Shown here: positions 16,655 through 40,230 of the stretch, in pieces | Layout of the letters: each line of letters starts with the position of its first letter | Position numbering within the stretch: position 1 is the first letter of the stretch | Source: a virus | Reading direction: 5' to 3' (one strand) | DNA length: 64,000 nucleotides | IMG/VR virus record: IMGVR_UViG_3300045996_002337 | Span: 239,971-303,970 of that record | The notes under the pieces: generated by a model | What the model saw: the letters and a program-made list of their open reading frames with translations, nothing else | The model's database searches: none | What the model was told of the DNA's origin: nothing | Made by a program: the position numbers and the translations under genes

Positions 16655-16690
16655 GGCGGCTATCTAGCAACTAATGCTATAATTGTTGGC
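16655..16690. repeat. 30-bp exact repeat copy A (gctatctagcaactaatgctataattgttg), upstream of the HD gene
   Basis: Identical to 40197-40230. Contains palindrome tagca-N5-tgcta and a TATAAT. Confidence 0.7.
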
Positions 16691-16695
16691 GCTGT

Positions 16696-17103
16696 TCATG
16701 CTTGCTCCAGTTGTGCGTTGATTTCTGCGAGTGCGGTGGCGTGTCGAATCACCTCATTTTGGACACCGAAAAGTTTAGCTTCGGTCTCACGCTTTGCTTT
16801 CTCCAGCTTCCACTTGTGGGCAGCTTTCAAAGGATTTTCTGAGTCAACGATGAATGAGGGAATCCGATACTCACTCGTCTGTGAGCATCCACGTGATGAC
16901 CAAGAGGTTTCAATTACGATCCACTTTTGGCCGTTTGATGTCCGCTCATCGATGCTCTCAACGCAGTCGCGCATCAGGCTGCCAACGCCGGCAGCATTCA
17001 GGACCTCTGACATTGCAGGCTTGAACTCGTCGATGTTTGGGTGCTTATAGGTGTCGATCTGCTGCTTGGCATCCTCAAGCAGTTCGCGAAGTTTGGTGGT
17101 CAT
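16696..17103 (-). CDS. hypothetical protein
   Basis: 135 aa ORF. Confidence 0.5.
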   Translation of the reverse strand: MTTKLRELLEDAKQQIDTYKHPNIDEFKPAMSEVLNAAGVGSLMRDCVESIDERTSNGQKWIVIETSWSSRGCSQTSEYRIPSFIVDSENPLKAAHKWKLEKAKRETEAKLFGVQNEVIRHATALAEINAQLEQA

Positions 17104-17348
17104 GCTTGTTCCTTAAAGAGTGTTTCGAGGTTAATGGGTTCAGACGTGTACTCGTAATCACCGCAGCCGATGTAGTTCCTATATGTCGCGGTCAAGTGCT
17201 CAAGGTCGGTCTCAAAGAGGTGGCAGATTGTGTACTGTTCGGGATCGTAATAATCAGGGACCCGAATCTCCTTTGGCAACTTTTCCTGCACGACCTTGCT
17301 GAGTTCGAGGAAGTCACCGTGAATTTTCTTGGCTTGATCGTAGTTCAT
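17100..17348 (-). CDS. hypothetical protein
   Basis: 82 aa ORF, 4-nt overlap. Confidence 0.5.
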   Translation of the reverse strand: MNYDQAKKIHGDFLELSKVVQEKLPKEIRVPDYYDPEQYTICHLFETDLEHLTATYRNYIGCGDYEYTSEPINLETLFKEQA

Positions 17349-17490
17349 TTTTGGTCCTGGGTAGGGAGGCGCCAGAGCTGAAGGCCCTTCATGAGGTGCC
17401 GCTTAGATTCTGGGAGGATGCACGCGATTGCGGTGAGACCCCAGTCCTGGTACGGTTCGTGGAACTCGGCAGTCTGAATACCGGCATCGT

Positions 17491-17727
17491 TCAAGGCGCG
17501 TCGAAACTGCTCGAGACGAGGTTTGTCTCGAATACGTAACTGGATGTAGGAGGGGTGATGGTCAGGAGGACGACCATATTGGAATGCATATTCAATTCCC
17601 GCGTGCGCGGATTGAATTGCCTGTTGAGCGAGTGGGAGGTCGCTGCGAGAGATTGTGTAAAGATAGTGCTTTTCGGAGATCTACGATTGCATGATTTTTC
17701 CTGTATGGTTGGTTCCATTTGCGGCAA
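17491..17727 (-). CDS. hypothetical protein (low-complexity)
   Basis: 78 aa ORF downstream of an attataacc motif at about 17760. Confidence 0.3.
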   Translation of the reverse strand: MPQMEPTIQEKSCNRRSPKSTIFTQSLAATSHSLNRQFNPRTRELNMHSNMVVLLTITPPTSSYVFETNLVSSSFDAP

Positions 17728-17764
17728 GGAACCTTGGCCGAAACTATTTACAGTCGATGAGTGA

Positions 17765-17992
17765 TTATAACCTAACGTTGCCGATAATGAAACCGGTTTG
17801 ATCAGGTTGAGGCAATCTGCTTTTCAGCATTCGGAACTTCGTTTCGCCCTTGGGCTCATGCGAAAGAGGAATGTACAGATCGACCGATTTTTGACGTGGT
17901 TGGCTCAACACGAACTTCACATCATGACGATGCGCAATTTCCTTCAATTGCTCGTAGAACGTTTTCGAGGCTGGCTCGACTGGCATGATCAC
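17765..17992 (-). CDS. hypothetical protein
   Basis: 75 aa ORF. Confidence 0.45.
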   Translation of the reverse strand: MIMPVEPASKTFYEQLKEIAHRHDVKFVLSQPRQKSVDLYIPLSHEPKGETKFRMLKSRLPQPDQTGFIIGNVRL

Positions 17993-18228
17993 TTCCTCAA
18001 GAAGGCGCCACCTTCAAAGATCGACTGGCACTTCACACAACGAATGGCAGATGGATACGCCTTGCGGCGGGCTTCAGGAATCGGCTCGTCGCAGTCATCG
18101 CAATCAGCTTGGCCGCTGCCGATCAAGCCAAGACGTGCAACCGCCATACGGTCCTTCATCGTCTGCTCGATCTGATCTTGAACACCGTCCGCTGCACCCC
18201 AACCTACTGCCATCAACTTTCCTATCAA
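17989..18228 (-). CDS. DksA/TraR-type C4 zinc-finger protein
   Basis: CDDCDEPIPEARRKAYPSAIRCVKCQ is a CxxC...CxxC zinc finger of the TraR/DksA type. Confidence 0.55.
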   Translation of the reverse strand: MIGKLMAVGWGAADGVQDQIEQTMKDRMAVARLGLIGSGQADCDDCDEPIPEARRKAYPSAIRCVKCQSIFEGGAFLRK

Positions 18229-18241
18229 CTAACGATAGTCA

Positions 18242-18270
18242 ATTATAACCATTCTTACGAACGTTGTACA
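18242..18270 (-). promoter_or_regulatory. promoter of the TGTACA-N17-TATAAT family
   Basis: Plus attataaccattcttacgaacgttgtaca. Confidence 0.45.
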
Positions 18271-18632
18271 TCTAGGCGTTCAGAAATTCTTGCACGATTC
18301 AGTTGCTGAGCAGCTTCATCTGGTTCCCAGTCGCACCACCATGATGTGGGCATTTGAGGCAGATCTGGAATCGACATGAATGAAACCCGTCTCCCGCGTC
18401 TGAGACACTCTGAAACGATTTCGTTGTACCGCTTCTGGAGATATCCGAGCCGGGTGTAGAAGAACTTTACATGCCCACCGCCAAGCACATAGGCTGCTGG
18501 AAACTTGGAAGGATCATCACCCCTCGCGTACGAGTTGTAAGCGAGTGTAAAGACACGAGGAAGCTCCCGGTATTCGGCACCCAGATGCTTATCGGTCAAT
18601 TCACTTGGTGGAATGCAGTTGATTCGCGTCAT
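18255..18632 (-). CDS. denV: pyrimidine-dimer DNA glycosylase (T4 endonuclease V family)
   Basis: [28 protein letters not shown]...[30 protein letters not shown] closely parallels T4 DenV ([28 protein letters not shown]...GAGHVTFFYDKLEFLRKR...ECLKRG). Start placed at the internal Met. Confidence 0.8.
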   Translation of the reverse strand: [125 protein letters not shown]

Positions 18633-18640
18633 CGCAATTA

Positions 18641-18717
18641 TGGCCGCCTCGCTGGGGATCGAACCCAGGACCAATCGCTTTTAGAGGGCGCTGCTCTACC
18701 GCTGAGCTACAAGGCGA
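18641..18717 (-). tRNA. tRNA with anticodon-region cctctaaaa (CUA-type, possible amber suppressor); atypical 8-nt T-loop
   Basis: Acceptor cgccttg/cgaggcg, D-arm tagctcagcggtagagc, encoded CCA. Weak anticodon stem. Confidence 0.5.
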
Positions 18718-18723
18718 AAATTT

Positions 18724-18800
18724 GGTGCGTCGTAAGGGATTCGAACCCTTGATCAAGTGTTTTAGAGGCACTAGCTTTAGACCGCTAAGCTAACGACGCG
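18724..18800 (-). tRNA. tRNA with anticodon CTA (amber-reading, suppressor-type)
   Basis: Acceptor gcgtcgt/acgacgc, anticodon region agtgc-cTCTAaa-acact (U33, CUA at 34-36, closing C-A mismatch), T-arm aagggTTCGAATccctt, encoded CCA. Confidence 0.6.
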
Positions 18801-18816
18801 TTGAAGCTATTATACA

Positions 18817-19254
18817 TCAGATCATTAGCGCCGGCTTAAACTTTTTAGCGTCGTTACATACTACATCAAGGTAATCTGTGATGAAGTTACCAGGAATTCT
18901 TGGGTTTTTAATCGCACCCAGCTGGGTGCTTGTTGCCAACGCTTCACCGTCCTCGGCATAGAGGGTGGCCGAGTTCAAAACCAGTTTGTCATCGCGGCAA
19001 ATCGCGGTCACCGAATCGATGAAGTAGGAGCCTTTCTTCTTCGCGCCTTCTACCACTCGCTCTTGGAAGAGCTTCAGACGGAGAGTAGAAGAAACTTCAT
19101 ACCCGCCGTTGTGTTGGCGGATAAAAAGTGACTTCATGTCTACTTCTATTTCAAATGCTGGTGATGCCCCAATTCGAACGAACTCAGTAACGTCTTGGAT
19201 GGGAGTCGTAATGATCCCCAATGCAAGTAGCACATGTGTGAGGAAAGAACCCAT
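18817..19254 (-). CDS. hypothetical protein (N-terminal hydrophobic segment)
   Basis: 145 aa ORF. AGGAG RBS upstream. Confidence 0.5.
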   Translation of the reverse strand: MGSFLTHVLLALGIITTPIQDVTEFVRIGASPAFEIEVDMKSLFIRQHNGGYEVSSTLRLKLFQERVVEGAKKKGSYFIDSVTAICRDDKLVLNSATLYAEDGEALATSTQLGAIKNPRIPGNFITDYLDVVCNDAKKFKPALMI

Positions 19255-19299
19255 CGACGACTCCTGTTAAGCTGATTTCGTATTTACACACATTGGGAG

Positions 19300-19695
19300 C
19301 ACATATGACTGCGGAGCCCGAAGGCTCCGCAGGATGGTTGGTTTACAAGGTGATCAACCCCGCCGTCGAGAGGTTATTAAGCTCTCGACTGCCCTTTCAG
19401 GCAGCCATACGGTAGTTTGCTTCGTTTGCACTTAGCTGTTTTACGCTGATTAGGTCAGTCGTCTCTCCTGCCGCGTATGATCGTCTCCGAAACCCTGTCG
19501 AAACCAGGTCATCCCCATTACAAATTTCTCTGAACTTCCGGGCGCCCAGTTGTTCTTGTTTCCCCAAGCTTTGGTACTGAAAACAGTGTTGGGATGCAGT
19601 AAGAGAAATTTGTGGTGGAGATGGCGGGAATCGAACCCGCGTCCAGAATCCTTCAAGTCACTCCGAATTACGGCAATCAACTGCATTGCTGCAGT
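19300..19695 (-). ncRNA. ssrA: tmRNA (SsrA), circularly permuted two-piece form. Acceptor piece about 19613-19695, intervening about 19517-19612, coding piece about 19300-19516.
   Basis: 3' tRNA-like domain ggacgcgggTTCGATTcccgccatctccACCA matches the E. coli tmRNA 3' end except for two nucleotides. Downstream 5' acceptor ggggatgacctggtttcgacagggtttcgg resembles tmRNA 5' ends and pairs with catctcc giving G3:U70. Tag frame GCA AAC GAA GCA AAC TAC CGT ATG GCT GCC TGA gives ANEANYRMAA (19397-19429). Terminal UUCG hairpin at 19311-19330. Confidence 0.75.
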
Positions 19696-19746
19696 ATGTT
19701 CCTATTATACACTACAATCACTTACCAAAGCTCAAATAAATGTGCT

Positions 19747-20298
19747 TTATTTTACACCGCGGAAGAGAGTCTCTAGAGGATACGTAGCCTCGATTCGCTT
19801 TTTCACCGCTGCGTTCTCGGATTTTGGGATGGTGCCCGCAACGAGGTCTGCCCATTGCTTCCGAGCTTCCTTGCGTTCTTTCTTGAACTCTGCGGCCAGC
19901 TCCGACGGTGTCGCACCTGCTTCCAGCTTTTTCAAGAGCCCCTTCGCTGCCTGAGCAAGTTCTGAGTCCTTGGAGTTGCCGAAGCTGCCTAGGTGGTCAG
20001 CGCTTTTCGCTTCCCATCCAGCCGCGTACTTCTCAAGCTTTTTTTGCCACGCCGTAGATTCGTCTAATGAGAGTAGTTCTTGTAGTAGCATGTATTCTCC
20101 AAATGTTGTTTGTTCGCTGAGCCCTGCTCTGCGCTTCACAATGCCGTTGACGTAGGCCCAAAACCGTGGGCCTTTCTTTTTGAATTTTTTCTTAGCCTGC
20201 TGTTCAGCTTCTTTCCACCAGCCCTCAATGTGCTCAGCGGATTTTCCTGTCTTTTCAGCGTAGCTCTTAACAACTGCGTTTGGCATGTCATCCTCCAA
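19747..20298 (-). CDS. hypothetical Lys/Ala-rich protein
   Basis: 183 aa ORF. Confidence 0.55.
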   Translation of the reverse strand: MEDDMPNAVVKSYAEKTGKSAEHIEGWWKEAEQQAKKKFKKKGPRFWAYVNGIVKRRAGLSEQTTFGEYMLLQELLSLDESTAWQKKLEKYAAGWEAKSADHLGSFGNSKDSELAQAAKGLLKKLEAGATPSELAAEFKKERKEARKQWADLVAGTIPKSENAAVKKRIEATYPLETLFRGVK

Positions 20299-20506
20299 TT
20301 TCTTCTAGCTGCTTTCGAATGCCTTCGAAAACCCGCCGAATATGTTCTTGTTCTTCTGCGGTAAGCGGCAACTCCAGTAACTGGAACTCCTCTAGCCTAC
20401 GCGTTTCAGTAGCTTTTTCAGCCTCTGCTTCGCGAATGCGCTTAGAAACGATTCGCATGGCGTTTCGCAAGCTTAGTTGAGACTGCCTTCTCAAGCTCAC
20501 GCTCAA
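20288..20506 (-). CDS. hypothetical small protein
   Basis: 72 aa ORF. Confidence 0.4.
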   Translation of the reverse strand: MSVSLRRQSQLSLRNAMRIVSKRIREAEAEKATETRRLEEFQLLELPLTAEEQEHIRRVFEGIRKQLEEIGG

Positions 20507-20789
20507 GTTGTTTGCTCCAGCCTGGAAGTTTGGTTACGTTTGTGCCAATTGGCCATGTCTTGACGAGCTCACCGTCTTCGCCAACTTGATCAGCCGGAGA
20601 AGCAAGAGTCGCTACACCAAGTTCAACTGACTCAGGTTGGCGTTCGTCAAACGAAGCATCATCACCATGCCGTGTTACGCTCGCCGCTTCATGCTCATAC
20701 TCAACCTTGATTTCAAGCGAGTCAAAACCATTGTCTTGAACATCAAGAGTGACTACCTCAGTGGGCAACTTAATTTCAAAAAGCTTCAT
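20442..20789 (-). CDS. hypothetical protein
   Basis: 115 aa ORF. Confidence 0.5.
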   Translation of the reverse strand: MKLFEIKLPTEVVTLDVQDNGFDSLEIKVEYEHEAASVTRHGDDASFDERQPESVELGVATLASPADQVGEDGELVKTWPIGTNVTKLPGWSKQLERELEKAVSTKLAKRHANRF

Positions 20790-20827
20790 AGTTGTTCCTA
20801 ATCCAAGGTAGTATTTATTGCCAAATC

Positions 20828-21166
20828 TCAGTCTACGTGAGGATTTTTGAAGACCACCTTCACGCCAAGTCTGTCAGCATGGGCAATTTCGCCAGCCACT
20901 CCAACCGAGGTATCGTGGCCATCAAACTGCAGCACCCACACCTCCTGACAGCAGCCAATAACAGCTCGACAGTAATCACACCATTGTTCCCAGGTGGGCT
21001 CCAGCGGCATGTACGGAAGAAGTTGGTACTGCTGCACCATTGGTGCAATGAGCGCGCAGTCAGGATTCTCCATCTGCAACTTGGCAAGATAGCTCAAGAA
21101 TTCCCCCTTGAGCTTCTCATTTTCAACTGTTCCTTTTGAGGGAATGGAAATGAAGACCGTTTTCAA
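20828..21166 (-). CDS. hypothetical protein
   Basis: 112 aa ORF. Confidence 0.5.
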   Translation of the reverse strand: MKTVFISIPSKGTVENEKLKGEFLSYLAKLQMENPDCALIAPMVQQYQLLPYMPLEPTWEQWCDYCRAVIGCCQEVWVLQFDGHDTSVGVAGEIAHADRLGVKVVFKNPHVD

Positions 21167-22563
21167 AACTCGGTCCTTGCGCGAACCTCAGCGAGAGTCG
21201 TTTCATTCATAATTTTACCATTCTGGTAAACGGTGACCATCTCGTCCTCGAATTCCTCGTTGAGGGTACCTTGATCCGTGCGGAGGGTCATGAGCTCACC
21301 GGTCAGCTTGCTGCGGAACAGGGAGAGGGTGCCTTCTTTCGACTTCTTGCCAGGATCGGTGATTGGATCCTTGGCGATGCCAACCCATTCACCATTTACT
21401 CGTACGGCAGATGCCTTCATGGCGAACTTGTAGGTATCGCGGTTGACCTTCTGCAACAGAGCACCACCAGAACCGAAGACAATGTTGTCAGCGGCGAAAC
21501 CCATTGCTTGGAGATTGCCAAGCAGAGTTTTGATCGAGAGGTGATCGACACCATCGCCCTGCAGCAGACCGACGTGCTTGATCTTCTTGAAGCCCTTGGC
21601 GTTCAGCTCATATCCGAAGGTAGCAGCTTGAAGCTTCAGGAGGCGTGGAACAACTTCCATCATGTCGCCAGAATCGGGGCGGAAGACGACCTTTGCACCA
21701 CTTGCGATGATCTCGTCCTTCAGCGTGGTGCAAAGTTGTTCGGCGGCACGGTACACATCGTAGCCATCGATCACGATCGAAACGATACCACCCGGCTTGC
21801 CGAGGTTCTTGATGACGTGACGAAGATACTCGAGTTCTTGCTCGGGCTCCCGGCCAAACGAGCATTCGACGCTGTGCTCGGTTGCAGGAACCGAAAAGGC
21901 GGCCATCGATTCCTTGTAGTAGAAGTTGGCGGCGCGAACACCTTCAATCGTGTCCGAACCCATGAAGTTCACCAAGTGGGCAGCGCCACCGATTTCAGCC
22001 TGTTCAGCGGAGGTGACACCACGCCCACCGAAGTCATGCAGCGCGAAGGGCAGACCACCAAGATCTGCACCAGTTGCATTGTAGAAGTTGCGAATTTCGC
22101 GCTTGATTGCGTAGTCAAGTGAGGCGATGGTGGTGGCGTACCAGACCGCGCGAAGAATGGCGGTCTCGATGTACGAGCAGAGCCAGAACAGGTCTTCATC
22201 ATCGCACTGCACGGTCACAATGGCGTTGCCAGAGCGAACGGGAGTTCCTTCGCGCACGGCCCGGATGGTCAGGGGCAGAAAACCGCCATACACTTTCACG
22301 ATCTTTTCCCAAGCCGAACGCTTGAATGGTTCGCCATGGCCAGCAGCAAAGGCTTCAGCCTCGTCGATGTGCGCGGTGGTGATTCGAATCGTCAGGAACT
22401 TCTTCAGCCACATTTGTAGGCCGAAGGGAATCATGATGTCACGACCATTGGTGCGGGCCTCGATATACGAGAACATGCCGGTGACGTTCTTCGGGTAGGC
22501 GAAGGCGTGCGACAGCTTGTACGAATCAACAGCGAGAATGGGATTGAAAGTGAGAGTGGTCAA
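21163..22563 (-). CDS. nadV: nicotinamide phosphoribosyltransferase (NAMPT/NadV)
   Basis: ILAVDSYKLSH N-terminus and HDFGGRGVTSAEQAEIGGAAHLVNFMGSDTIEG closely match the NAMPT active-site region. Confidence 0.8.
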   Translation of the reverse strand: MTTLTFNPILAVDSYKLSHAFAYPKNVTGMFSYIEARTNGRDIMIPFGLQMWLKKFLTIRITTAHIDEAEAFAAGHGEPFKRSAWEKIVKVYGGFLPLTIRAVREGTPVRSGNAIVTVQCDDEDLFWLCSYIETAILRAVWYATTIASLDYAIKREIRNFYNATGADLGGLPFALHDFGGRGVTSAEQAEIGGAAHLVNFMGSDTIEGVRAANFYYKESMAAFSVPATEHSVECSFGREPEQELEYLRHVIKNLGKPGGIVSIVIDGYDVYRAAEQLCTTLKDEIIASGAKVVFRPDSGDMMEVVPRLLKLQAATFGYELNAKGFKKIKHVGLLQGDGVDHLSIKTLLGNLQAMGFAADNIVFGSGGALLQKVNRDTYKFAMKASAVRVNGEWVGIAKDPITDPGKKSKEGTLSLFRSKLTGELMTLRTDQGTLNEEFEDEMVTVYQNGKIMNETTLAEVRARTEF

Positions 22564-22648
22564 GATTAGCTCCTAATCAAGTTATAGGCAGTTCACGTCT
22601 ATCGCAAACTGGCAGGTTTTTAGAGGACCCCGCTAACCTCATCTTACA

Positions 22649-28709: not shown

Positions 28710-28988
28710 TTAAGCGGTGCGGCCCAGCTTCTTGTCGATGTTCACCATCTTTCGGGCGAGGGCAAGAAGATCTTCTTGCCGACCTTGGATGGCCGCATTT
28801 GACTTGCCAACTGGAGAGCTCTTCAGCTCTTCAATTTGGAGCTGAATTCGCTCACGTTGTGTGAGAAGCTTCTCGCGTTCATTGGAAGCGGGTCGACCGT
28901 TTTGCGTGTCTGCGAGCCAGGTCATAGAACTTCCAGTTTGTTTTGCATAAGCAATTATAACACAACCTGCATTTACTGTACATGCCAT
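28710..28988 (-). CDS. hypothetical protein
   Basis: 92 aa ORF. Confidence 0.45.
   Translation of the reverse strand: MACTVNAGCVIIAYAKQTGSSMTWLADTQNGRPASNEREKLLTQRERIQLQIEELKSSPVGKSNAAIQGRQEDLLALARKMVNIDKKLGRTA
28944..28972 (-). promoter_or_regulatory. promoter of the TGTACA-N17-TATAAT family (with CAGGTTG spacer element)
   Basis: Plus attataacacaacctgcatttactgtaca. Confidence 0.5.
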
Positions 28989-32405: not shown

Positions 32406-32415
32406 TTATTTTCTT

Positions 32416-33111: not shown

Positions 33112-33896
33112 CGGTCACTCCTTCCAAGTTCGCTGTATGGGCATACAAGAGCTCGAAGGAAGTTCAATGCCATGTCCTGTACGATGCCGTAGAACAGAAT
33201 GGTGAGCTGAATAGCAAACACCGCGCTGAGGTTGAAGTATTTGGCTTGAACAGCCAACAGCGCACCGATTCCACCGTCACTGCGAACATATGATTCCACC
33301 ATCACGATCAGCGTCCAACCGATTGCGGCGTTCTGGCGGAGAAGGTCAAGCATGACGTGAAGACGGCCGCGAACACCCATTTCCCACGTGATCTGCCAGC
33401 CGCTGAGACCCAAGCTACGTGCGTAGTCGATGCTTTCCAGCGGGATCGATTTGATTTCGTCGACCGTCGACCGCATTAGGAATACCGTCATGCCGAAAGT
33501 GAGCATCGCCAGCTTGAGCATTTGACCATCACCACCCACCCAGAGGGTAAAGAGGAAGGTGAGACCAGCAAAACCGAGGAAGCGCAGCGAGGCAATGAAC
33601 GTTCCAGTCGGTTTGAAAATGTCGGCAGTGGTGAGATAGGCGACGCCAAAGGAAATTAGAGCTGACAGGATTAGAGCCTCCCAGATCACCACTACCGATT
33701 TGAAGAGCTCAAGCAGAAGACCGTTGTTGAGGGCCAACGAGTTCCATGCTTGCGCGATTGAAGAAGGCGAGGGAATGCCTGTGCCATTTGGCAACAGAGT
33801 CCAGATGATCGCCATAATGGCAAGCTGTGTGAGCGCCAGAAACTTCACGCTTAGCTTGCGACCTTGAGAAAAGGGGACGAACATGGATTTGATCAT
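33108..33896 (-). CDS. ABC transporter permease
   Basis: Six hydrophobic segments. Conserved cytoplasmic loop DYARSLGLSGWQITWE (EAA-type). Confidence 0.75.
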   Translation of the reverse strand: MIKSMFVPFSQGRKLSVKFLALTQLAIMAIIWTLLPNGTGIPSPSSIAQAWNSLALNNGLLLELFKSVVVIWEALILSALISFGVAYLTTADIFKPTGTFIASLRFLGFAGLTFLFTLWVGGDGQMLKLAMLTFGMTVFLMRSTVDEIKSIPLESIDYARSLGLSGWQITWEMGVRGRLHVMLDLLRQNAAIGWTLIVMVESYVRSDGGIGALLAVQAKYFNLSAVFAIQLTILFYGIVQDMALNFLRALVCPYSELGRSDR

Positions 33897-34210
33897 TTCT
33901 TGCCTTTGAGAGATGCGAGCGTAATTTCAGGGTCCTTCTCCTGTTTCTTCAGTTGTTGCTGAACGCTCGGGGTGATGAAGCCACCTGGCTCTTCGAGGAT
34001 GACGTGATTGCCGTCGACCTTCACGAGGCGGTATGGCTTCATGCTGTGACCCATACCAAACCTATCACCGAAGGCGCGTTGCTCAGCCGACTTCAGCGAC
34101 TTGTACGCGGCGGCTTTCTGGATGTCGTTCGTAAAGCACCACTCATATGTGGGTTGATGTTTGGCGTAGTAGCCGCGATCAATCCATTCAACAACGTATT
34201 GAACAATCAT
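33893..34210 (-). CDS. hypothetical protein
   Basis: 105 aa ORF. Confidence 0.5.
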   Translation of the reverse strand: MIVQYVVEWIDRGYYAKHQPTYEWCFTNDIQKAAAYKSLKSAEQRAFGDRFGMGHSMKPYRLVKVDGNHVILEEPGGFITPSVQQQLKKQEKDPEITLASLKGKK

Positions 34211-34213
34211 TTC

Positions 34214-34432
34214 TTACTTTCGAATGTGCCCGAACGTACGTTCGAGGGCGATGATGAATACACAGAAAAACCAGCATCCGCCCACAACACCAAATGGAAT
34301 CCGAATAAGGTCATTATGCGAAAAGATATCTGCGATGAAAAGCGGAATCATCCAGCCAAGCATTATGGCCAAGAAAATCAAGAACCTTTTTGGTTCCCGC
34401 AAGCTATCGAACCACATGTTGAATTTCTTCAC
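34214..34432 (-). CDS. small membrane protein
   Basis: 72 aa, two hydrophobic helices. Confidence 0.4.
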   Translation of the reverse strand: MKKFNMWFDSLREPKRFLIFLAIMLGWMIPLFIADIFSHNDLIRIPFGVVGGCWFFCVFIIALERTFGHIRK

Positions 34433-34437
34433 AGCAA

Positions 34438-34671
34438 CTATCCAACAATTTTCTTAGAACGCACCTGCGCATCTTGTTCTTTTTGTTGAGAGACCGCCGC
34501 AACAGCCTCATCGCGTGTTTTGAACCTAAGTGGATAGGGCAAGGACTCTGATGACGCGAACTGCGTTTCCCATGTTCTCCAAAATAGATAGAGTTCCCAT
34601 GCGCCTTTTTCTTGCACTGTGTACCATACACTTTCACCTTCGCGACGTTCCACAATTCGGTATTTCTTCAT
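34438..34671 (-). CDS. hypothetical protein
   Basis: 77 aa ORF. Confidence 0.45.
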   Translation of the reverse strand: MKKYRIVERREGESVWYTVQEKGAWELYLFWRTWETQFASSESLPYPLRFKTRDEAVAAVSQQKEQDAQVRSKKIVG

Positions 34672-34679
34672 GATGATCC

Positions 34680-34943
34680 TTAAACGCGATTCACAAAACC
34701 GCAGTGCTTACACACATCTTCGAAGCGTGAACCCATGAGTGACAGATCACCGCATTCAAAATCATGAGACTCAGTGTCATTACAGATACGCTGTTTGACA
34801 AGTGCATCTGCTGTTTCTTGAAGATTTTTAATGCGCTCCTGCAGATCAATCAACGCTTTCTGAGTCAACCGAATCTGCTGTTGAACAAACACGGACGAAT
34901 CTTCAATTTCGCGGGCGAACAGGTTCTTCATCATTTGATCCAT
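34680..34943 (-). CDS. hypothetical protein with C-terminal zinc-ribbon (CGD...CKHCG)
   Basis: 87 aa ORF. Confidence 0.45.
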   Translation of the reverse strand: MDQMMKNLFAREIEDSSVFVQQQIRLTQKALIDLQERIKNLQETADALVKQRICNDTESHDFECGDLSLMGSRFEDVCKHCGFVNRV

Positions 34944-35031
34944 TGTCTTCCTTCGTTGACTTTCTTCGAGCTAGGCCACATTTGACCCACTTCGAAGAAG
35001 GAAGGAGACTTAAGTCTCCTTCCAGCGTCAC

Positions 35032-36729
35032 TTACTTCGTGGAGAAGAGGACGATTTCAACGCGACGGTTCTGTGCATCCGAACCAATAGGCTGGGTGTC
35101 GCCATAACCACGGGTCACGATGCGCTCTGTCGGGAAGTTCGAGCCGGCGTTGGTCATGAGGAACTGCTTCACTGCTTCAGCACGGGCCTTCGACAGAATC
35201 ATGTTCGACGTAGGGTTACCCTTGGAGTCGGTGTGACCATTGATCTGGACCGAGAGACTCGACACCGCGATGTTGTCGAGAAGGTCATTCAGAACGGCGA
35301 TGGAAGCGGGCTTGATCGTGGACTTACCGCTGTCGAACTCAACCGTGTACGACTTGTTGGCAACGACCTCAGCCTTTTGACCACCGTACGTAGGCACCGC
35401 AGCCGGAGCAACCGTGGTCGAGCCTGCCAGCAGCGCTTGAACATACGTCGTGTCGACCACATCTTCGTAGGGAATCAGCTTGTCGAGCATGTCAGGAAAG
35501 TACTTTACCGCGATGTTGCCATAGACGGTGTAGACCTTCTTGTACAGGTTATCGTTGCCATTCAGGCCAAAGAGAAACGCGTTGTCAGCGAGGCCGTTGG
35601 TCGTCGAACCACCCAAGAAGATCGGGTTGCCAGTCTTGTCGTTCTCAACGACACCACGGTGGTACTTCGCCCAGTATGCGGCGTCCTGTTCACCATAGAC
35701 TTTGGCTTGAACTGCACCAGACTTGAGCAGTGCGTCAGAGTTGGAGCGAACTGCTTCACCACCTTCGAACGCTGCAGCCAAGAGGGCCTTCACGACTTCA
35801 GGGTTCTTCTGCATCCACTGCTTGTTGCCAATGATGGTCGTCGGCATTTGCCATGCGTATTCCTTCGTCGAGGCGAGGACTTTGAGGTTACCACGTTCAC
35901 GTGCCAGCTTCACATCGCCTGGGGTCCAGGTTGCAGAACCGTTCACGCAAACCTTTTGACTCTGTTTGGTAGCGGTGTTCGTGCGCGTTTCGCATGCACC
36001 TGCCATGAACTTTTCATCAGCTTCCGTGAAGGAGCCAGTGCCAGCAAAGTTCATGCCATTCGGGTCATACGTCTTCGGGTCAGAGTTCACGACGATGCCG
36101 TTATCCGCGGCGTACTTGATGCAGATGTTGATGTCACCATCACCGAGGTAACCGGCAATCAGCGAGCCCTTTGCGGTCGCGTTCTTGTCGATGATGCACT
36201 TGTCTTCACCACGGCTGTAGCCGAGGGCACCAACAACGGCAACCGACTGATTGAACGGAGCGAGTGCGTCATTTGCACCCTTGACGAAAGCAGGGTAACC
36301 GTCACCCATGATGATCACGAAGTGCGAGCCCTGCGAGTTGTCTTTTGCGAAGGTGGCGAGGTCAGCAATGAGCTTCGCGTAGTCGTCTTCACGCTTGATG
36401 TTGACCTTCAGGCCGCGCTTGGCCATCAGGGAACCAGATGCGGTCGTTGCATCGCCGTTCGCGAAGTGCAGACCGGCGGTGCCGTTCCACGGAATCGTCT
36501 TGATGCGGATCGTGTCGCTCGAAGAAACGGTGGTTGCAGCGATCGTGGTCGTTGCGGCAGGAGTGGCTGCAGCAGCCGTCGGCAGATCGATCTTGTCAGG
36601 CACGGAGGCCTCAATCGTTGCCTTCGGCTTGAAGTAGCCAGCGTTCATTGCGATGTGGGCGCCGTAGCCCAGGATACCGACAGCCGCAGCGATGAGAATC
36701 GCCTTCGGTGCCGCTTTCAGCTTTGCCAT
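35032..36729 (-). CDS. OmpA-family peptidoglycan-binding protein with large periplasmic N-domain
   Basis: C-terminal NGHTDSKGNPTSNMILSKARAEAVKQFL...TRGYGDTQP...NRRVEIVLF is the OmpA/MotB PG-binding motif. N-terminus MAKLKAAPKAILIAAAVGILG resembles that of the SBP gene at 29173-30243. Confidence 0.7.
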   Translation of the reverse strand: MAKLKAAPKAILIAAAVGILGYGAHIAMNAGYFKPKATIEASVPDKIDLPTAAAATPAATTTIAATTVSSSDTIRIKTIPWNGTAGLHFANGDATTASGSLMAKRGLKVNIKREDDYAKLIADLATFAKDNSQGSHFVIIMGDGYPAFVKGANDALAPFNQSVAVVGALGYSRGEDKCIIDKNATAKGSLIAGYLGDGDINICIKYAADNGIVVNSDPKTYDPNGMNFAGTGSFTEADEKFMAGACETRTNTATKQSQKVCVNGSATWTPGDVKLARERGNLKVLASTKEYAWQMPTTIIGNKQWMQKNPEVVKALLAAAFEGGEAVRSNSDALLKSGAVQAKVYGEQDAAYWAKYHRGVVENDKTGNPIFLGGSTTNGLADNAFLFGLNGNDNLYKKVYTVYGNIAVKYFPDMLDKLIPYEDVVDTTYVQALLAGSTTVAPAAVPTYGGQKAEVVANKSYTVEFDSGKSTIKPASIAVLNDLLDNIAVSSLSVQINGHTDSKGNPTSNMILSKARAEAVKQFLMTNAGSNFPTERIVTRGYGDTQPIGSDAQNRRVEIVLFSTK

Positions 36730-36803
36730 TTGTTTTCCTTCAAAGTTTCAAAATACAAACTAAGTCCTGTCAGACTTTTCTATCCAGTATGGACAGATGA
36801 TGA

Positions 36804-36833
36804 ATTATACACCACCTGTCCATACCTGTACAA
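36804..36833 (-). promoter_or_regulatory. promoter of the TGTACA-N17/18-TATAAT family
   Basis: Plus attatacaccacctgtccatacctgtaca. Confidence 0.45.
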
Positions 36834-36837
36834 CGCT

Positions 36838-37860
36838 TTACTTACGTGAGAGCAGTTCGCTGTAGTCAACTTGACCTGCAGCAGGGACACCGATTCCCAT
36901 GTTGAGCGTGGAGTTCACGGTAGTGTGCTCGAGCATTTGTTGCTTGCTGTTGCCAAGCAGAATGCTGTCGGCTTTGTTTTCCCACTCTTGCAGACGCTTG
37001 AGCGCTTCTTCTTCATAAACGCCGTTCTGAAGATCAAGACCATCAACGAAACCCTTCGAGTTCTCAATGAAGTTCTCGATTTCACCAAGCTTCATGCCGT
37101 AGTCGTTCACTACGTATTCCATGGCTTGGTCGAACAGTTCCTTCTGGTCAGTACCGCCCATCAGAATCTTCTTCGCGGTCATCATCGCCGAGTGCGACTC
37201 AAGGATCAGATTGCGCTGGAGTTCCTGCGACTTGACTTCGTTGTTGAGGTCAGCGATAACGGTGTCAGTTACCTCGCGGTACTTGCGAAGCGCTTTCAAG
37301 TGAACCTGCATTTGGAGAAGCAGCGGTTTCAGAGTTTCTTTGTTCAGCTTCTCCATGCGAATCGCCTGACGACCTGACACCTGCACCGCAGAAACGTTGT
37401 TGCGTTCGCGCGCCACTTTGGCGATGGACATGTTGCGTTCGTACTCAGCTTCATTCGTCTGCACTGCTTTTTCACAGACCTTCACTTGACCTTGGAGCTT
37501 GGCGATGGATTCGTCCATTGTCTCTTGCTTTTTACGAAGGTCCTCAATGTAGGACTTCATGATGCCAATTGGATCGATTTCAACGAAAGCTCCAGTGACC
37601 TTTCGCATGGCGCTCTTGAACGCGTAGCTGATGAGCGTTTGGAACTTCTTGTTCGACAGAATCATGATGATCGCGAAGAGAACTGCACCGAGCACCGTCA
37701 GCGTGATTGCTTGTCCGACCATCGTGATCGCCATACCGAAGATGTTGATCAGCGTAGGGCCAACGAAGAAGACGGTTGCGAGGACACCAAGCCCGATCGC
37801 AATCATACCCGTCGTACCCTCTGGCCGCTCCCAGAAGCTCTTTGGTTTAAAGTCGTTCAT
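36838..37860 (-). CDS. membrane-anchored coiled-coil protein (PspA/IM30-like?)
   Basis: Two N-terminal TM helices then long predicted coiled coil. Confidence 0.45.
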   Translation of the reverse strand: MNDFKPKSFWERPEGTTGMIAIGLGVLATVFFVGPTLINIFGMAITMVGQAITLTVLGAVLFAIIMILSNKKFQTLISYAFKSAMRKVTGAFVEIDPIGIMKSYIEDLRKKQETMDESIAKLQGQVKVCEKAVQTNEAEYERNMSIAKVARERNNVSAVQVSGRQAIRMEKLNKETLKPLLLQMQVHLKALRKYREVTDTVIADLNNEVKSQELQRNLILESHSAMMTAKKILMGGTDQKELFDQAMEYVVNDYGMKLGEIENFIENSKGFVDGLDLQNGVYEEEALKRLQEWENKADSILLGNSKQQMLEHTTVNSTLNMGIGVPAAGQVDYSELLSRK

Positions 37861-37881
37861 TTGTTTAGTTTCCTTTCCGGC

Positions 37882-38529
37882 TTAACCGAGGGTAGAGAGA
37901 ATGGTGCTCTTGTGACCGTTGAGCGTTTCGCGCACGTGCTGAGCTGCTGCCTTGAACTCGACTTCTGCTTGGCGGAGCTCATGTTCTTTCGCTTGTGCTT
38001 CGCCACGAAGTTGGCTTGCCTTGGTCGTCTGCTCGAGAACTTGACCTTGCAGGGACGTGATGCGCTCAGTAAGGCGGCGAATTTCATCATTCGCCGCAGC
38101 GGTTGCTTGCTCGGCAGCGTCGGCTTGTCGCGTAAGACCACCAACCTCAGTTTGAATCTTCGCGTTCAGCGCTTGGCTGAACCGCATTTCTTCGCCATCG
38201 ACGTCGCTCAAGTGAATCGCGACCGCGTCAGCAATCTCCTTTGGGGAACGACCGCCGCCCGCCTTGTGCGCGGCTTTCAGGCGCATTACCTGATCAGGAA
38301 TGACGTCAGCAAGGTTGTCGCTTTGTGCCAGCAGCGCAGTCAGTGCGGTGTTTCGACCAAACGTCGCCTTTTCAATCGCTTGCACCATTGCTGGATTCAG
38401 CGTCGAGGAGGAAGCTGGCGAGGTAGACCCATTGGTCGCTTGCGCTGCGACAGGCTTTTGGGTGGGAGTCGACGTAGTTTCGCCCTCCTCCTCGAGCACC
38501 AAACCCTTAATTGCTTTGAGAAAACTCAT
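37882..38529 (-). CDS. coiled-coil protein, hypothetical
   Basis: 215 aa ORF. Confidence 0.5.
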   Translation of the reverse strand: MSFLKAIKGLVLEEEGETTSTPTQKPVAAQATNGSTSPASSSTLNPAMVQAIEKATFGRNTALTALLAQSDNLADVIPDQVMRLKAAHKAGGGRSPKEIADAVAIHLSDVDGEEMRFSQALNAKIQTEVGGLTRQADAAEQATAAANDEIRRLTERITSLQGQVLEQTTKASQLRGEAQAKEHELRQAEVEFKAAAQHVRETLNGHKSTILSTLG

Positions 38530-38560
38530 GTTCAGTCCTTAAAAATGATGTGTTATCGTA

Positions 38561-38779
38561 TCACGCCGATGGCGGAATGTGAACTTTGTTGGTGGCGATA
38601 TTCAGGTTGATGCGTCGTTCATGGACACTGATCGCCCACTGTCGAACCTCCTTCAGCTCCGCTTCCCAGATCGCTTCCTCTGGGCTGCTCTTTGCAGGTT
38701 TGTTGTCATGCAAAAGGCAGAAGAGCTTGTTGATGGCCCGCAGTGCGGCATCAGTTTTCTCCCACGTATCGTAGTTCAC
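38561..38779 (-). CDS. hypothetical protein
   Basis: 72 aa ORF, 4-nt overlap with the RNA ligase gene. Confidence 0.4.
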   Translation of the reverse strand: MNYDTWEKTDAALRAINKLFCLLHDNKPAKSSPEEAIWEAELKEVRQWAISVHERRINLNIATNKVHIPPSA

Positions 38780-40137
38780 TTCTCGCCTTCAAGCCACTTG
38801 TTGCTGATCACTTTGAACTGGTGCGAACCATCCATCGCCTTGAACACGAGACCTTCGCGCACAGCAGCGACCATACTTGGACCATCAGCGAACTTGAGCA
38901 GATCGTCCATGTTGTGAATGCCGAGTTCGGCGAGGGTCACGTTGAAGTGCAGCACAGGCACATGCTCGATCATCTCGCAACCGAAGAGGTTCTTCGCGCA
39001 TTCATTCGCGCTCTTGATCCAAGCAAGGCGTTGGTCAGGAGTCATGAACTCGCCATTCTTGATGTCGAAGATGTTGTACACGAAGAAGCGGTTTTCTGTG
39101 AAGCGTTCTTGGTTGCCCTGGATTCCGGGGCCCATCAGTTCGCCTTGAAGTGCAACGTCGCCACCTTGTTCCGCGATCAGCTCGAGGAGGTCAGGGCTGG
39201 CCATCTTGACAAACGCGTTGTCCTCGTTGCCTTCCAGCTTGAGGTCGAGATTGCGCGAGCACACGCCCTTGATCTCGAGGCCTTCATCGCACTCGGCGTT
39301 CTTCACGTAGGCGGTCATCGAGCTGCCGTCCATCTTCATGGTCACCTCGTAGCGGGTGTCGCGGCTGGCTTCAGCCTTGCGGACCTTGTGCCACTTGCTG
39401 GTCGATTCGTGCCACACGATGTCACCACGGGCGCACATGGCGTCGAGAGCTTCGTCGGGAATGTTCTCGACGCTGAACTCGTAGGTGACATCCTCGTAAC
39501 CGAAGATTTGGTTGCCCATGTTCTGCGCACGTTCTTGATCGCTCTTCTTCAGGAACGAGGGGAAGTTGCCCTTGGCCAGACCAACAAGCTGAGCGCTGGG
39601 CACAGGCGGTTCCCATTTCATGATGCCGAGAAGGCCCGTGAAGTTATACTGACGAATGTCTTCAAAGTCGTAAGTATGACGGCCGGCATCTCGCTCACGG
39701 TGAAACCCGTCGATGAATTCCTCGACTTCGGGGAAAAGGCTCAGCGGTAGCGCGAGACCTTGCGAGAGCTGCTTGCGGAGGCGGATCGTCTTCAGGCGAG
39801 CACCATCGATTCCGTTCCACGTGATCTTGTTCTTCGCGAGGAAGGCGTAACGTTCATCATCGAGCGGTAGGAAACTGTCGACCTCGAAGAACACGCATGA
39901 ATCTCCAACCTGAAATTCTCCAGCCTTGACCACGACCTTCCAGCCTTCAACTGAAGCAACCTTGATCAGGTCTGCACCAGGGATGTCGTCGATCGCATCG
40001 ATGCGCCTGACGGTCACGAGCTTCCGGCCGTCAGCAACCGCGTCTTGGACGAGACGTTGACGGCGAACAGCTTGAAAAGCCGTATGGTCGCCAATGATTT
40101 GGGCATCTGCTTCATTGTATTCATTCATCGTCATCAT
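38776..40137 (-). CDS. ATP-dependent RNA ligase (Rnl5/DraRnl-like: N-terminal domain plus nucleotidyltransferase domain)
   Basis: Motif I VTMKMDGSS (KxDG), motif IV EGLVFKAMDG, motif V FKVISNKW. N-terminal RRIDAIDDIPGADLIKVASVEGWKVVVKAGEFQVGDSCVFFEVDSFLP matches the DraRnl-type N-domain. Confidence 0.7.
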   Translation of the reverse strand: MMTMNEYNEADAQIIGDHTAFQAVRRQRLVQDAVADGRKLVTVRRIDAIDDIPGADLIKVASVEGWKVVVKAGEFQVGDSCVFFEVDSFLPLDDERYAFLAKNKITWNGIDGARLKTIRLRKQLSQGLALPLSLFPEVEEFIDGFHRERDAGRHTYDFEDIRQYNFTGLLGIMKWEPPVPSAQLVGLAKGNFPSFLKKSDQERAQNMGNQIFGYEDVTYEFSVENIPDEALDAMCARGDIVWHESTSKWHKVRKAEASRDTRYEVTMKMDGSSMTAYVKNAECDEGLEIKGVCSRNLDLKLEGNEDNAFVKMASPDLLELIAEQGGDVALQGELMGPGIQGNQERFTENRFFVYNIFDIKNGEFMTPDQRLAWIKSANECAKNLFGCEMIEHVPVLHFNVTLAELGIHNMDDLLKFADGPSMVAAVREGLVFKAMDGSHQFKVISNKWLEGEK

Positions 40138-40196
40138 TTTCTCCTGGTATGTCTATGGTGTATTGTATCATTATCAGCGCAGGATGTACACCTTTT

Positions 40197-40230
40197 TTCG
40201 CGCCGCTATCTAGCAACTAATGCTATAATT
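40197..40230. repeat. 30-bp exact repeat copy B, upstream of the RNA ligase gene
   Basis: Identical to 16655-16690. Confidence 0.7.

Follow-up and report, generated by a model that had tools for sequence, protein, structure and literature searches.

A 30-bp element repeated upstream of HD-domain and RNA ligase genes belongs to a family of intergenic motifs in uncultivated T4-type jumbo phages

Results

Two exact copies of a 30-bp element

We analysed a 64-kb stretch of viral DNA (the window) in which a 30-mer, reading GCTATCTAGCAACTAATGCTATAATTGTTG on the plus strand, is present in exactly two copies 23.5 kb apart. No dispersed exact repeat in the window is longer, and the identity between the copies ends sharply at both of its edges. 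No further match was found in the window at up to three mismatches (0 of 100 shuffles gave any match), nor did a scan allowing up to 11 mismatches in 30 reveal a degenerate third copy. The original prediction of an element occurring exactly twice therefore holds, with its coordinates (16655–16690 and 40197–40230) shifted by a few bases. The genes adjoining both copies all lie on the minus strand, as do 90 of the 91 genes called in the window.

Features at the two sites. Descending coordinates are read along the gene strand.

16088–16627, minus strand: gene for an HD-domain protein, starting 31 nt downstream of copy 1
16659–16688, minus strand: copy 1 of the 30-mer; the gene strand reads CAACAATTATAGCATTAGTTGCTAGATAGC
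16677 to 16660, gene strand: family core GCATTAGTTGCTAGATAG in copy 1
16681 to 16677, gene strand: 5-base TA-N-AG box (TATAG) in copy 1, its last G common to box and core
16683 to 16678, gene strand: AT-rich run ATTATA (box plus adjacent bases) in copy 1
16664–16699, minus strand: mini-ORF of 11 codons in frame with the HD gene; its TAG (16666–16664) lies within the 30-mer
16696–17103, minus strand: gene for a 135-aa protein without family match, upstream of copy 1; its stop codon precedes the 30-mer by 7 nt
38776–40137, minus strand: RNA ligase gene (PHA02142 OB fold and RNA_ligase PF09414), 67 nt downstream of copy 2
40162–40190, minus strand: sigma-70-like promoter TGTACA-N17-TACAAT, of a class abundant in the window, 14 nt downstream of copy 2
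40205–40234, minus strand: copy 2 of the 30-mer; family core 40223 to 40206
40223–40717, minus strand: gene for a 164-aa HNH-type protein, upstream of copy 2

Copy 1 lies between the 135-aa ORF and the ATG of the HD gene (16627), and is overlapped by the mini-ORF, whose own ATG (16699) overlaps the TGA of the upstream gene; this layout is also seen in relatives. The Pfam HD match of the downstream gene scores 19.6 bits, under the curated cutoff of 22, and the assignment is supported by phrog_14850 (3e-58); with the PF09414 and PHA02142 matches of the ligase, both gene identities are as originally proposed. No sigma-70-like promoter was found between copy 1 and the HD gene. Copy 2 takes in the TAG stop (40225–40223) of the HNH-type gene, and the sigma-70-like promoter that follows it is predicted to drive the RNA ligase gene (ATG at 40137). 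The palindrome TAGCA-N5-TGCTA, also part of the original prediction, is found in both copies, and its pattern is not rarer than chance (three matches against 1.06 expected, with 6 of 100 shuffles reaching three). There is no shift of composition or skew at the 30-mer sites.

Full-length relatives of the HNH-type protein are encoded in 19 of the 28 related loci fetched (40–53% identity), and a convincing motif lies beside the gene in only one of those 19 (L196); in L202 a degenerate copy is found ~600 nt downstream. A sporadic homing endonuclease or cassette end at copy 2 was therefore rejected, the gene being conserved across the clade and rarely next to the motif. Linkage of HNH and Rnl2 genes is a known pairing (PMC7824862).

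A motif family in related jumbo phages

Comparison with related contigs indicates that the 30-mer is the window phage's form of an undescribed, asymmetric DNA motif of ~25 bases, with the gene-strand consensus TA-N-AG-GCATTAG-N-TG-NN-AGATAG-CG, which genome-specific flanks lengthen to 30–38 bp. The 57 distinct instances collected from uncultivated jumbo-phage contigs display near-invariant columns over ~25 nt and sharp edges, and the 18-nt core is nearly invariant among phages whose HD proteins are only ~45–55% identical. Each genome has its own flank variant, common to all its copies: CAACAATTA in the window, and GCGCGAATTA, GCGCGGATTA or CCCAT in other genomes. Only the window's sub-clade retains the palindrome. 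In the rest of the family these columns are TGYCA-NCTAA-TGCC (e.g. TGTCA-NCTAA-TGCC), which does not support the idea that the palindrome forms the functional core of the element.

Four contigs of 235–342 kb carry 4 to 11 copies each, 18–100 kb apart, the best sampled being a 342-kb contig with 11 copies at intervals of 18–44 kb. The overall density is ~1 per 30 kb, and all but a few instances fall between called genes. As read from the consensus, the gene-strand motif holds stop codons in all three frames and so cannot lie inside an ORF. The motif was absent from 50,697 records of cultured phages and in effect absent from bacteria (three chance-like matches in 185,579 species genomes), and nothing in Rfam 15 matched the element at the gathering threshold or at E ≤ 1. 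It is restricted to a single clade of uncultivated T4-type jumbo phages.

Distant relatives carry the motif at matching gene junctions, namely ahead of HD genes, RNA ligases and a membrane protein. Of the HD-homologue loci fetched from contigs of related phages, 13 have a related motif upstream of the HD gene; in group A (L084, L134) it precedes, in gene orientation, both this gene and an RNA ligase gene. Both genes are likewise preceded by it in metagenome 3300016484, on contigs L007 and L202/L003, which may not be one genome. Among the ligases, it stands ahead of the Rnl1-type in L134 and L072; in the case of the Rnl2-type, the window has it in the interval separating HNH gene and ligase, and L202/L003 have it ~450 nt upstream of the ligase. 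The same membrane protein is preceded by it in L132 and L135, and a UvrD-helicase cluster is followed by it in L095 and L158. This recurrence at HD genes, and at both genes in other lineages, supports the part of the original proposal in which the two genes share a cis-acting element under selection. An operator private to the HD and RNA ligase genes, in contrast, is at odds with the 4 to 11 sites per genome beside many other genes. As for a dispersed repeat, an outcome considered from the start, related genomes do hold many copies, but at conserved and almost always intergenic junctions rather than at random.

Orientation and surroundings of the sites

The motif is biased towards the direction of its neighbouring genes, not fixed, and flips at orthologous junctions. 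With codon-scored gene calls, and with sister contigs counted twice, 25 sites are co-directional with both neighbours, 13 are reversed between co-directional genes, 5–8 lie between convergent and 4 between divergent genes. At the junction between the 'MKITY' gene and the HD gene, it is forward in L013 and L084 and reversed in L006, L136, L129/L140 and L138. Given these flips and the non-strict bias, no simple promoter, terminator or operator model fits every site.

A terminator hairpin is found ~35 nt upstream of the motif in group A and directly downstream in L068, L076, L132/L178 and L180. Within the window's sub-clade, most sites come after a co-directional gene, and at five sites the next start codon is 27–46 nt off with a Shine-Dalgarno sequence, leaving no room for another promoter, so that the motif either is a promoter or lets transcription pass. 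At reversed sites in several loci, the next start codon comes 29–33 nt past CTAATGCC with a Shine-Dalgarno sequence between. Group A repeats a whole cassette of 60 to ~150 nt, which is inverted as a unit and gave only sub-threshold chance matches in Rfam; three metagenome contigs end exactly at the motif.

Comparison with known classes of element

The window contains 11 sites of the TGTACA-N17-TATAAT class (at one mismatch or fewer), all on the minus strand, and eight minus-strand but no plus-strand sites of the ATAAATA class. None of the latter overlaps the 30-mer; in L178, L180 and L181 an ATAAATA element lies downstream of the motif and hairpin. A T4-type late promoter with a TATAAATA-type −10 was rejected as an identity for the 30-mer, from which the ATAAATA class is separate. 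A MotA box (wwwTGCTTtA) 12 ± 1 bp upstream of a TAnnnT −10 was not found on either strand of the two copies and the relatives inspected, where the box-like strings TTGCTAGA or AATGCTATA occur without a −10 at the required spacing. An intrinsic terminator was also rejected: the core folds into a 5-bp hairpin of −4.7 kcal/mol, a stability matched by 21 of 200 shuffles, copy 1 with its flanks folds at z = +0.46, and no T tract follows the 30-mer on the gene strand. As regards mobility of the REP/MITE type, the conserved positions at several orthologous junctions speak against it and the flips of orientation in place speak for it.

Discussion

We give about even chances to a role for the motif in transcription control by the phage itself; the binding of a protein, its phage origin and the transcriptional effect are what we infer. 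In outline, a sequence-specific DNA-binding factor encoded by the phage would recognise the motif at the boundaries of transcription units. It might then initiate transcription towards the downstream gene, with the motif as a third, low-copy promoter class, or control read-through from the upstream gene, with the motif as an operator or roadblock, and we weigh these two options about equally. The HD and RNA ligase genes of the window would in this way receive a shared, phage-controlled input, adding to read-through for the former and to the TGTACA-N17-TACAAT promoter for the latter. Genome-specific flanks common to all copies fit a reader that is encoded in the genome and co-evolves with the motif, rather than host sigma-70, and the two other strand-strict promoter classes in the window leave room for a third, as in the early/middle/late scheme of T4. 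T4-type (group 2) jumbo phages have no RNA polymerase of their own and encode sigma factors and additional transcription factors (PMC7824862).

Several observations run against transcription control. A conventional promoter would be expected to be ~100% co-directional, as are the window's other two classes; a density this low and fairly even is not what a temporal promoter class usually shows; the conserved bases form one contiguous stretch, not two hexamers and a spacer; the order of the motif relative to terminator hairpins varies; and the related DNA fetched and examined yielded no candidate for a binding protein or a polymerase.

The main rival, which we hold to be unlikely, is a non-transcriptional genome-maintenance site serving in replication initiation, site-specific nicking, clamp loading, topoisomerase action or chromosome organisation, and intergenic only because its stop codons in all three frames bar it from ORFs. 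The low and fairly even spacing (in the 342-kb contig as between the window pair) favours such a site, as do an orientation that is biased yet not tied to neighbouring genes, the flexible position relative to terminators and promoters, with read-through apparently tolerated, and a contiguous length of 25–38 bp, which suits sites of this kind. It is weakened by the recurrence of the same gene families beside the motif in distant lineages, which conserved synteny alone could explain, by the lack of an adjacent AT-rich unwinding region or iteron array, and by composition and skew that do not change at the sites, with no cognate enzyme identified. From the density, the polarity bias, the independence from local promoter and terminator layout and the absence from coding sequence, one can derive a bolder and quite improbable proposal: a polar, strand-specific, spaced site at which a conserved phage enzyme opens or nicks DNA, the clade-wide HNH-type protein encoded beside copy 2 being a candidate. 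Such sites could act as replication origins and, given T4-type late promoters, also as fixed points of entry for the sliding clamp by which late transcription is activated, in which case they would replace, in hard-wired form, the forks or random nicks on which T4 relies. Similarly improbable is a selfish or recombinogenic repeat (REP- or PeSL-like), homogenised by gene conversion and serving as a crossover point for module shuffling. Copies are alike within a genome and diverged between genomes, occur in both orientations and right after stop codons, and the inverted group A cassette and the contig breaks at the motif are also in its favour; T4-type phages are known to have repeated cassettes between genes that drive shuffling (PMC2839356, PMC4122927). 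Drift and conversion would not, however, preserve a near-invariant 18-nt core at such HD divergence, and the sites are orthologous across clades rather than scattered, low in copy number and without an early-promoter consensus inside the motif.

Three further explanations seem to us very unlikely. The least implausible is a host sigma-70 promoter on the plus strand, where TGCTATAAT, a perfect extended −10, is present in both copies and at least nine sub-clade relatives, followed by the GC-rich, discriminator-like TCGCGCG; the start codons beyond CTAATGCC at reversed sites would also suit it. In the −10 hexamer that sigma-70 needs, A stands at position 2 and T at position 6; here the final T is not conserved (TATAAA, TATAAG, TATATC, TAATGG, TATTAC; TACGAG in group A). 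There is no −35 element, a plus-strand promoter scan found nothing, genome-specific flanks do not fit a host factor, and transcription would run antisense into a coding gene at most sites, in the window against the 3' ends of ORF 16696–17103 and the HNH-type gene. We give slightly less credence to a palindromic TAGCA-N5-TGCTA operator through which a dimeric repressor controls just the HD and RNA ligase genes. The palindrome in both copies and in the window's sub-clade and the motif at both genes in other lineages point that way, but in most of the family its columns look more like a 10-bp direct repeat, conservation reaches asymmetrically well past the palindrome, and related genomes have sites adjoining other genes; an operator of this type was rejected on the grounds that its two-fold half-sites are not kept across the family. 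Most doubtful is a gene-strand promoter for a phage single-subunit (T7/SP6-type) RNA polymerase with its start at or near ATA|G. Like such promoters, the motif has a contiguous block (~24 nt, against ~20–24 bp), ending in ATAG and then G or C, that is identical within a genome, covaries between genomes and directly follows the preceding gene's stop. Its variable columns coincide with the polymerase specificity region, and in a post hoc comparison a run of 10 bases (TTAGGTGACA) is common to the variant GCATTAGGTGACAGATAG, a frequent one, and the SP6 promoter ATTTAGGTGACACTATAG. With respect to the start site, however, the two are offset by 1 nt, the strict co-orientation of such promoters is violated by the reversed and convergent sites, and T7-type polymerase catalytic motifs were found neither in the window nor in 1.5 Mb of related loci, by which the genomes are partly covered. 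Nor is a polymerase expected, since published surveys report none in this jumbo-phage group or in RsoM2USA (PMC7824862, PMC8504454).

Among known systems, the proposed transcription-control site can be compared with T4 middle promoters (MotA box plus sigma-70 −10, with AsiA-dependent sigma appropriation). These are a third promoter class of low-to-moderate copy number, next to the sigma-70-like early and TATAAATA-type late promoters of that phage; they have a phage-encoded DNA-binding reader and often stand in tandem with early promoters, an arrangement also seen at copy 2. T4 has ~30 middle promoters in 169 kb, a far higher density than that of the motif, which is one contiguous 25-bp block without the MotA-box/−10 pair and is not strict in orientation. 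PeSL cassettes of T4-type phages are likewise dispersed and near-identical between a stop and the next start, combined with stem-loops, highly similar within a genome and linked to module boundaries, but they hold a sigma-70-like early promoter and crowd hyperplastic regions, described as densely populated by them (PMC2839356, PMC4122927), whereas the motif occupies a few conserved positions per genome. A PeSL-type identity was rejected, the 30-mer having no early-promoter consensus and a stem-loop at some sites only, in variable position. The window has PeSL-like families of its own, which are separate repeats (45530, 46666, 60720, 61922). Bacterial REP/BIME repeats are also short, extragenic, placed after stop codons in either orientation and homogeneous within a genome; they differ in being palindromic and numerous, with positions that are not conserved between distant genomes, whereas the motif is asymmetric and rare and keeps its positions.

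Beyond its two identical copies in the window, the motif is made informative by its conservation across the clade, its low and fairly even density and its flips of orientation. It provides a sequence handle for recognising members of an uncultivated jumbo-phage clade, and an aid for finding the cognate DNA-binding protein by phylogenetic profiling. Should it serve genome maintenance, it would be an origin or nick signal defined by sequence, of a kind that is rare in jumbo phages. If instead it is read by a phage-encoded factor, it would define a small regulon conserved across one giant-phage clade that includes RNA-repair-type genes (the HD protein and Rnl1- and Rnl2-type ligases), and would offer a handle on how giant T4-type phages divide genomes that reach 340 kb among transcription units.

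A repeated 30-mer ahead of two genes

The 30-mer GCTATCTAGCAACTAATGCTATAATTGTTG occurs exactly twice in the window, on the plus strand in both cases, and the absence of a third match bears out that part of the original prediction. No further match was found in the window at up to three mismatches (100 shuffles also gave none), and a scan allowing up to 11 mismatches revealed no degenerate copy. It is the longest dispersed exact repeat of the window, the longer repeats being local tandem duplications, and identity between the two copies breaks off sharply at either edge. Since 90 of the 91 called genes lie on the minus strand, the element is to be read as CAACAATTATAGCATTAGTTGCTAGATAGC.

Sites of the 30-mer and adjoining features (window coordinates).
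16659-16688, plus-strand match: copy 1, 7 nt past the stop of a 135-aa ORF and 31 nt ahead of the ATG of the HD-domain gene
40205-40234, plus-strand match: copy 2, overlapping the TAG stop of a 164-aa HNH-type gene
40223-40717, minus strand: the HNH-type gene
40190-40162: sigma-70-like promoter TGTACA-N17-TACAAT, 14 nt after copy 2, with the RNA ligase gene next

The genes upstream of the two copies are unrelated (BLASTP, E = 10) and so give no indication of a duplicated cassette. When folded on both strands, for both copies and with or without flanks, the 30-mer forms only a 5-bp hairpin, with no consistent advantage over shuffles.

The 164-aa HNH-type protein has full-length relatives (40-53% identity) at 19 jumbo-phage loci (L186-L204) and is therefore a conserved gene of the clade. 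Its gene usually lies directly upstream of an Rnl2-type ligase, normally with no motif adjoining, which excludes a homing-endonuclease link at copy 2. The HNH-Rnl2 association is already known (PMC7824862), and the arrangement recalls the HNH-Rnl2 fusions of Iyer et al. 2021.

A motif family of related jumbo phages

The exact 30-mer has no match in IMG/VR; in related contigs of that database the same sequence is recognisable ahead of the HD gene. When IMG/VR was scanned with the degenerate pattern CTATCTNNCANCTAATGC, 115 loci matched; about 45 are true members of the family, on contigs of jumbo phages, and the rest are chance or coding matches (for example to a clamp-loader motif). Metagenome contigs, scanned with the window-type variant, contributed 16 more. 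Once duplicates were removed, 57 distinct instances gave the consensus TA-N-AG-GCATTAG-N-TG-NN-AGATAG-CG, with about 25 nt of near-invariant columns and sharp edges. The motif is absent from cultured phages, has no match in Rfam and, among 185,579 bacterial and archaeal species genomes, is absent save for three matches that lack the flanking boxes; in the searchable literature, nothing relevant to the motif strings turned up. The sequence family appears to be undescribed. Dispersed cis-elements specific to phages are already known as a kind; unusual here are a density that is low and fairly even, positions that are conserved, and an orientation that flips in place.

Copy numbers and spacings, obtained by combining match positions with contig coordinates, are lower bounds because the search pattern was strict.

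Motif copies on related contigs (lower bounds).
342-kb contig 3300036781_000418: 11 copies, 18-44 kb apart
332-kb contig 3300047445_000186: 7 copies, 20-54 kb apart
235-kb contig: 5 copies
336-kb contig: 4 copies, up to about 100 kb apart

The two copies in the 64 kb of the window, 23.5 kb apart, agree with the density of the best-sampled contigs. The flanks carry a genome-specific variant common to all copies within one genome (CAACAATTA-TAGC in the window; GCGCGAATTA, GCGCGGATTA or CCCAT in other assemblies), so that the six extra identical bases of the window extend the shared core in a lineage-specific way. Group A, the GC-rich 342-kb phage, has a much longer repeated unit, in which about 35 nt are conserved 3' of the motif (TGCGGGTTCA-N4-RCGGCGACACGA) and several copies carry another 100 nt with long-range complementarity, the whole unit inverting together. 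At three convergent junctions of this phage (L079, L090 and L155) the motif is followed by a near-identical module of about 70 nt with a strong hairpin at its end, and a block complementary to the module start lies about 100 nt further on (CGGCGACACGA / TCGTGTCGCCG); this arrangement could represent a family of small RNA genes or a structured cassette of DNA. In the FVAB01 metagenome assembly, three contigs start or end exactly at the motif (L175, 1-24; L182, 1-24; L176, last 24 nt), as expected if a repeat breaks the assembly graph, which suggests several copies in that genome.

Position and orientation relative to genes

The motif lies between called genes in all but a few instances, five being placed within a long ORF by a rough caller. 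Its sites recur at orthologous gene junctions. It precedes the HD gene at 13 of the HD-homologue loci fetched, an Rnl1-type RNA ligase at two loci (L134, L072) and one same membrane protein at two more (L132, L135), and it lies 3' of a UvrD-helicase cluster in L095 and L158. In L202/L003 it lies some 450 nt ahead of the window-type ligase, as a variant identical at 26 of 27 nt to the pre-HD copy from the same sample (L007). The original prediction had the two window copies co-regulating the HD and RNA ligase genes through a palindromic operator: the sharing of the element by these genes is kept in several lineages and is just part of a larger set of sites.

A crude longest-ORF caller gave noisy orientation counts in GC-rich contigs. 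The counts below come from a codon-usage log-likelihood caller trained per genome; gene calls on metagenomic contigs are approximate and some sister-contig duplicates are included.

Motif orientation relative to neighbouring genes.
Co-directional with both neighbours: 25 sites
Reversed between co-directional genes: 13 sites
Between convergent genes: 5-8 sites
Between divergent genes: 4 sites

Orientation flips even at a single conserved junction, that of the 'MKITY' and HD genes, where the motif is forward in L013 and L084 and reversed in L006, L136, L129/L140 and L138. In the sub-clade of the window the forward orientation predominates, and at five sites the start codon follows 27-46 nt past the motif, with a Shine-Dalgarno sequence and no space for another promoter. 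At three further sub-clade loci (L178, L180, L181) the motif is followed by a terminator hairpin, an ATAAATA element and then the gene, unlike group A, where the terminator hairpin is upstream of the motif; at four others (L170, L171, L175, L179) the motif faces a convergent gene.

Promoter-like sequences and RNA genes of the window

The window comes from a novel jumbo phage. A comparison with 50,697 cultured-phage records gave no relative at the nucleotide level, the sole match being a 33-bp stretch of the tmRNA, and no existing record was found for its RNA ligase protein. The best protein matches of the HD and ligase genes are in the jumbo phages RsoM2USA and XacN1, Yersinia fHe-Yen9 phages, Rak2-like phages and BcepSauron. 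Two abundant promoter-like classes, TGTACA-N17-TATAAT (11 sites at up to one mismatch) and the T4-late-like ATAAATA (8 sites on the minus strand, none on the plus), are confined to the gene strand; the 30-mer lies outside both.

Promoter-like sites and RNA genes (minus strand).
TGTACA-N17-TATAAT, examples, often followed by AGC: 10826-10854, 18242-18270, 28954-28982, 36804-36832, 56195-56223, 59224-59252
ATAAATA: 55294, 49382, 42731, 27761, 20818, 16069, 12200, 964
19306-19749: tmRNA
18641-18716 and 18723-18799: tandem tRNA genes, anticodon CUA (amber suppressors)
2258-2362: Rfam tRNA match (105 nt, 55 bits)

The first class has an unusual -35 (TGTACA in place of TTGACA), and several copies lie within longer PeSL-like repeated cassettes (45530-45582, 46666-46704, 60720-60772, 61922-61974). 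One such promoter is held in a 55-nt exact tandem-type duplication, with copies 216 nt apart (10800-10854 and 11016-11070) and a diverged third near 11219. The flanks suggest that the ATAAATA sites sit upstream of genes, as they do in relatives L178, L180 and L181; the one at about 12200 is in a hairpin loop and that at about 16069 has a hairpin directly after it.

The 28 tRNA genes include the two tandem tRNA-CUA genes. The match at 2258-2362, which ARAGORN does not call, may represent a tRNA that contains an insertion or intron or has an unusual arm. The phage-encoded tmRNA (tag peptide ANEANYRMAA) scores with beta-proteobacterial and permuted models alike, and shares its 33-bp exact stretch with the tmRNAs of Stenotrophomonas jumbo phages (Moby, Mendera, IME-SM1 and others).

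A mini-ORF and amber codons

Ahead of the HD gene, within the stretch 16610-16699 (minus strand), lies an in-frame mini-ORF of 11 codons, whose ATG at 16699 overlaps the TGA of the upstream gene and whose TAG stop falls within the 30-mer, followed by twelve in-frame codons (IAAGKLEALREK) up to the annotated ATG. The same layout 10-13 codons ahead of the HD ATG recurs in RsoM2USA and in more than 20 of the jumbo-phage contigs, comprising ATG, 1-7 codons, a stop and then usually ATT, GTT, ATA, ATC or ATG (loci L004-L048, upstream of position 3001, and L169, 2460-2503). The stretch after the stop varies synonymously and therefore looks translated, a pattern that suggests either programmed read-through or termination followed by reinitiation at a near-cognate codon.

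Only 2 of the 91 called genes terminate in TAG (TGA 48, TAA 41), and as a coding-strand trinucleotide TAG occurs at 0.32 of expectation. The sole clearly genuine TAG-ended gene is the HNH-type gene, with its TAG in the motif and a second in-frame TAG two codons on; the motif is the only four-TAG cluster in a TAG-depleted genome with two tRNA-CUA genes. An amber-codon role for the motif was dropped, as no function could be derived and the in-frame mini-ORF stop before HD is TGA in group A.

What the motif may be

Several familiar identities do not fit. The motif hairpin is weak and no U tract follows it, excluding an intrinsic terminator. An efficient constitutive terminator of any kind is excluded as well, because for several of the genes downstream no other promoter is possible. 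Conventional sigma-70, T4-late and MotA-type promoters are ruled out by the conservation pattern and spacings, and by an orientation too lax when set against the two strict classes of the window. Judged by eye against consensus sequences, no IHF, DnaA, LexA, CRP or Pho box, and no sigma-54, sigma-28, sigma-E/ECF or SPO1-type promoter, fits in both sequence and spacing.

By contrast, almost every site combines a long, asymmetric, near-invariant core with flank variants shared genome-wide, a conserved intergenic junction, enrichment at transcription-unit boundaries (convergent and divergent junctions included) and absence from hosts. Taken together, these features argue for recognition of the site by a phage-encoded protein that binds DNA sequence-specifically. 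The most likely role of the site would be transcription control at unit boundaries, a reading of the sequence that we hold with about even confidence. The main rival, a polar genome-maintenance site without transcriptional function (an origin, a nick or clamp-loading site, or a chromosome organiser), is rather unlikely. It accounts better than transcription control for the fairly even intervals between copies, the flips of orientation and the independence from local promoter and terminator layout, but more poorly for the recurrent gene neighbours.

The other candidates range from improbable to slight. A REP- or PeSL-like recombinogenic repeat, for which there is precedent (PMC2839356, PMC4122927), is improbable. 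Very unlikely is an antisense sigma-70 promoter: the plus-strand extended -10 (TGCTATAAT) is perfect in the window yet not family-wide, the final position being variable and the group A form being TACGAG. Slightly less credit still is due to the palindromic two-gene operator originally proposed. The palindrome TAGCA-N5-TGCTA is indeed present in the 30-mer, but the pattern is no rarer than chance expectation and is retained only in the sub-clade of the window; the corresponding columns of other clades, TGYCA-NCTAA-TGCC(T), look more like a 10-bp direct repeat. Slightest of all is the chance of a T7/SP6-type promoter. The common motif variant shares 10 identical bases (TTAGGTGACA) with the SP6 promoter, a striking resemblance, but the register is off by one base. 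In 1.5 Mb of related DNA no T7-type polymerase motif was found. In published surveys neither the T4-type (group 2) jumbo phages nor RsoM2USA show a phage RNA polymerase, and phage sigma factors, gp33 and additional transcription factors are reported (PMC7824862, PMC8504454).

If the motif does control transcription at unit boundaries, it might act as a low-copy third promoter class or as a gate on read-through, and in the phage of the window it would supply the HD and RNA ligase genes with a common input.
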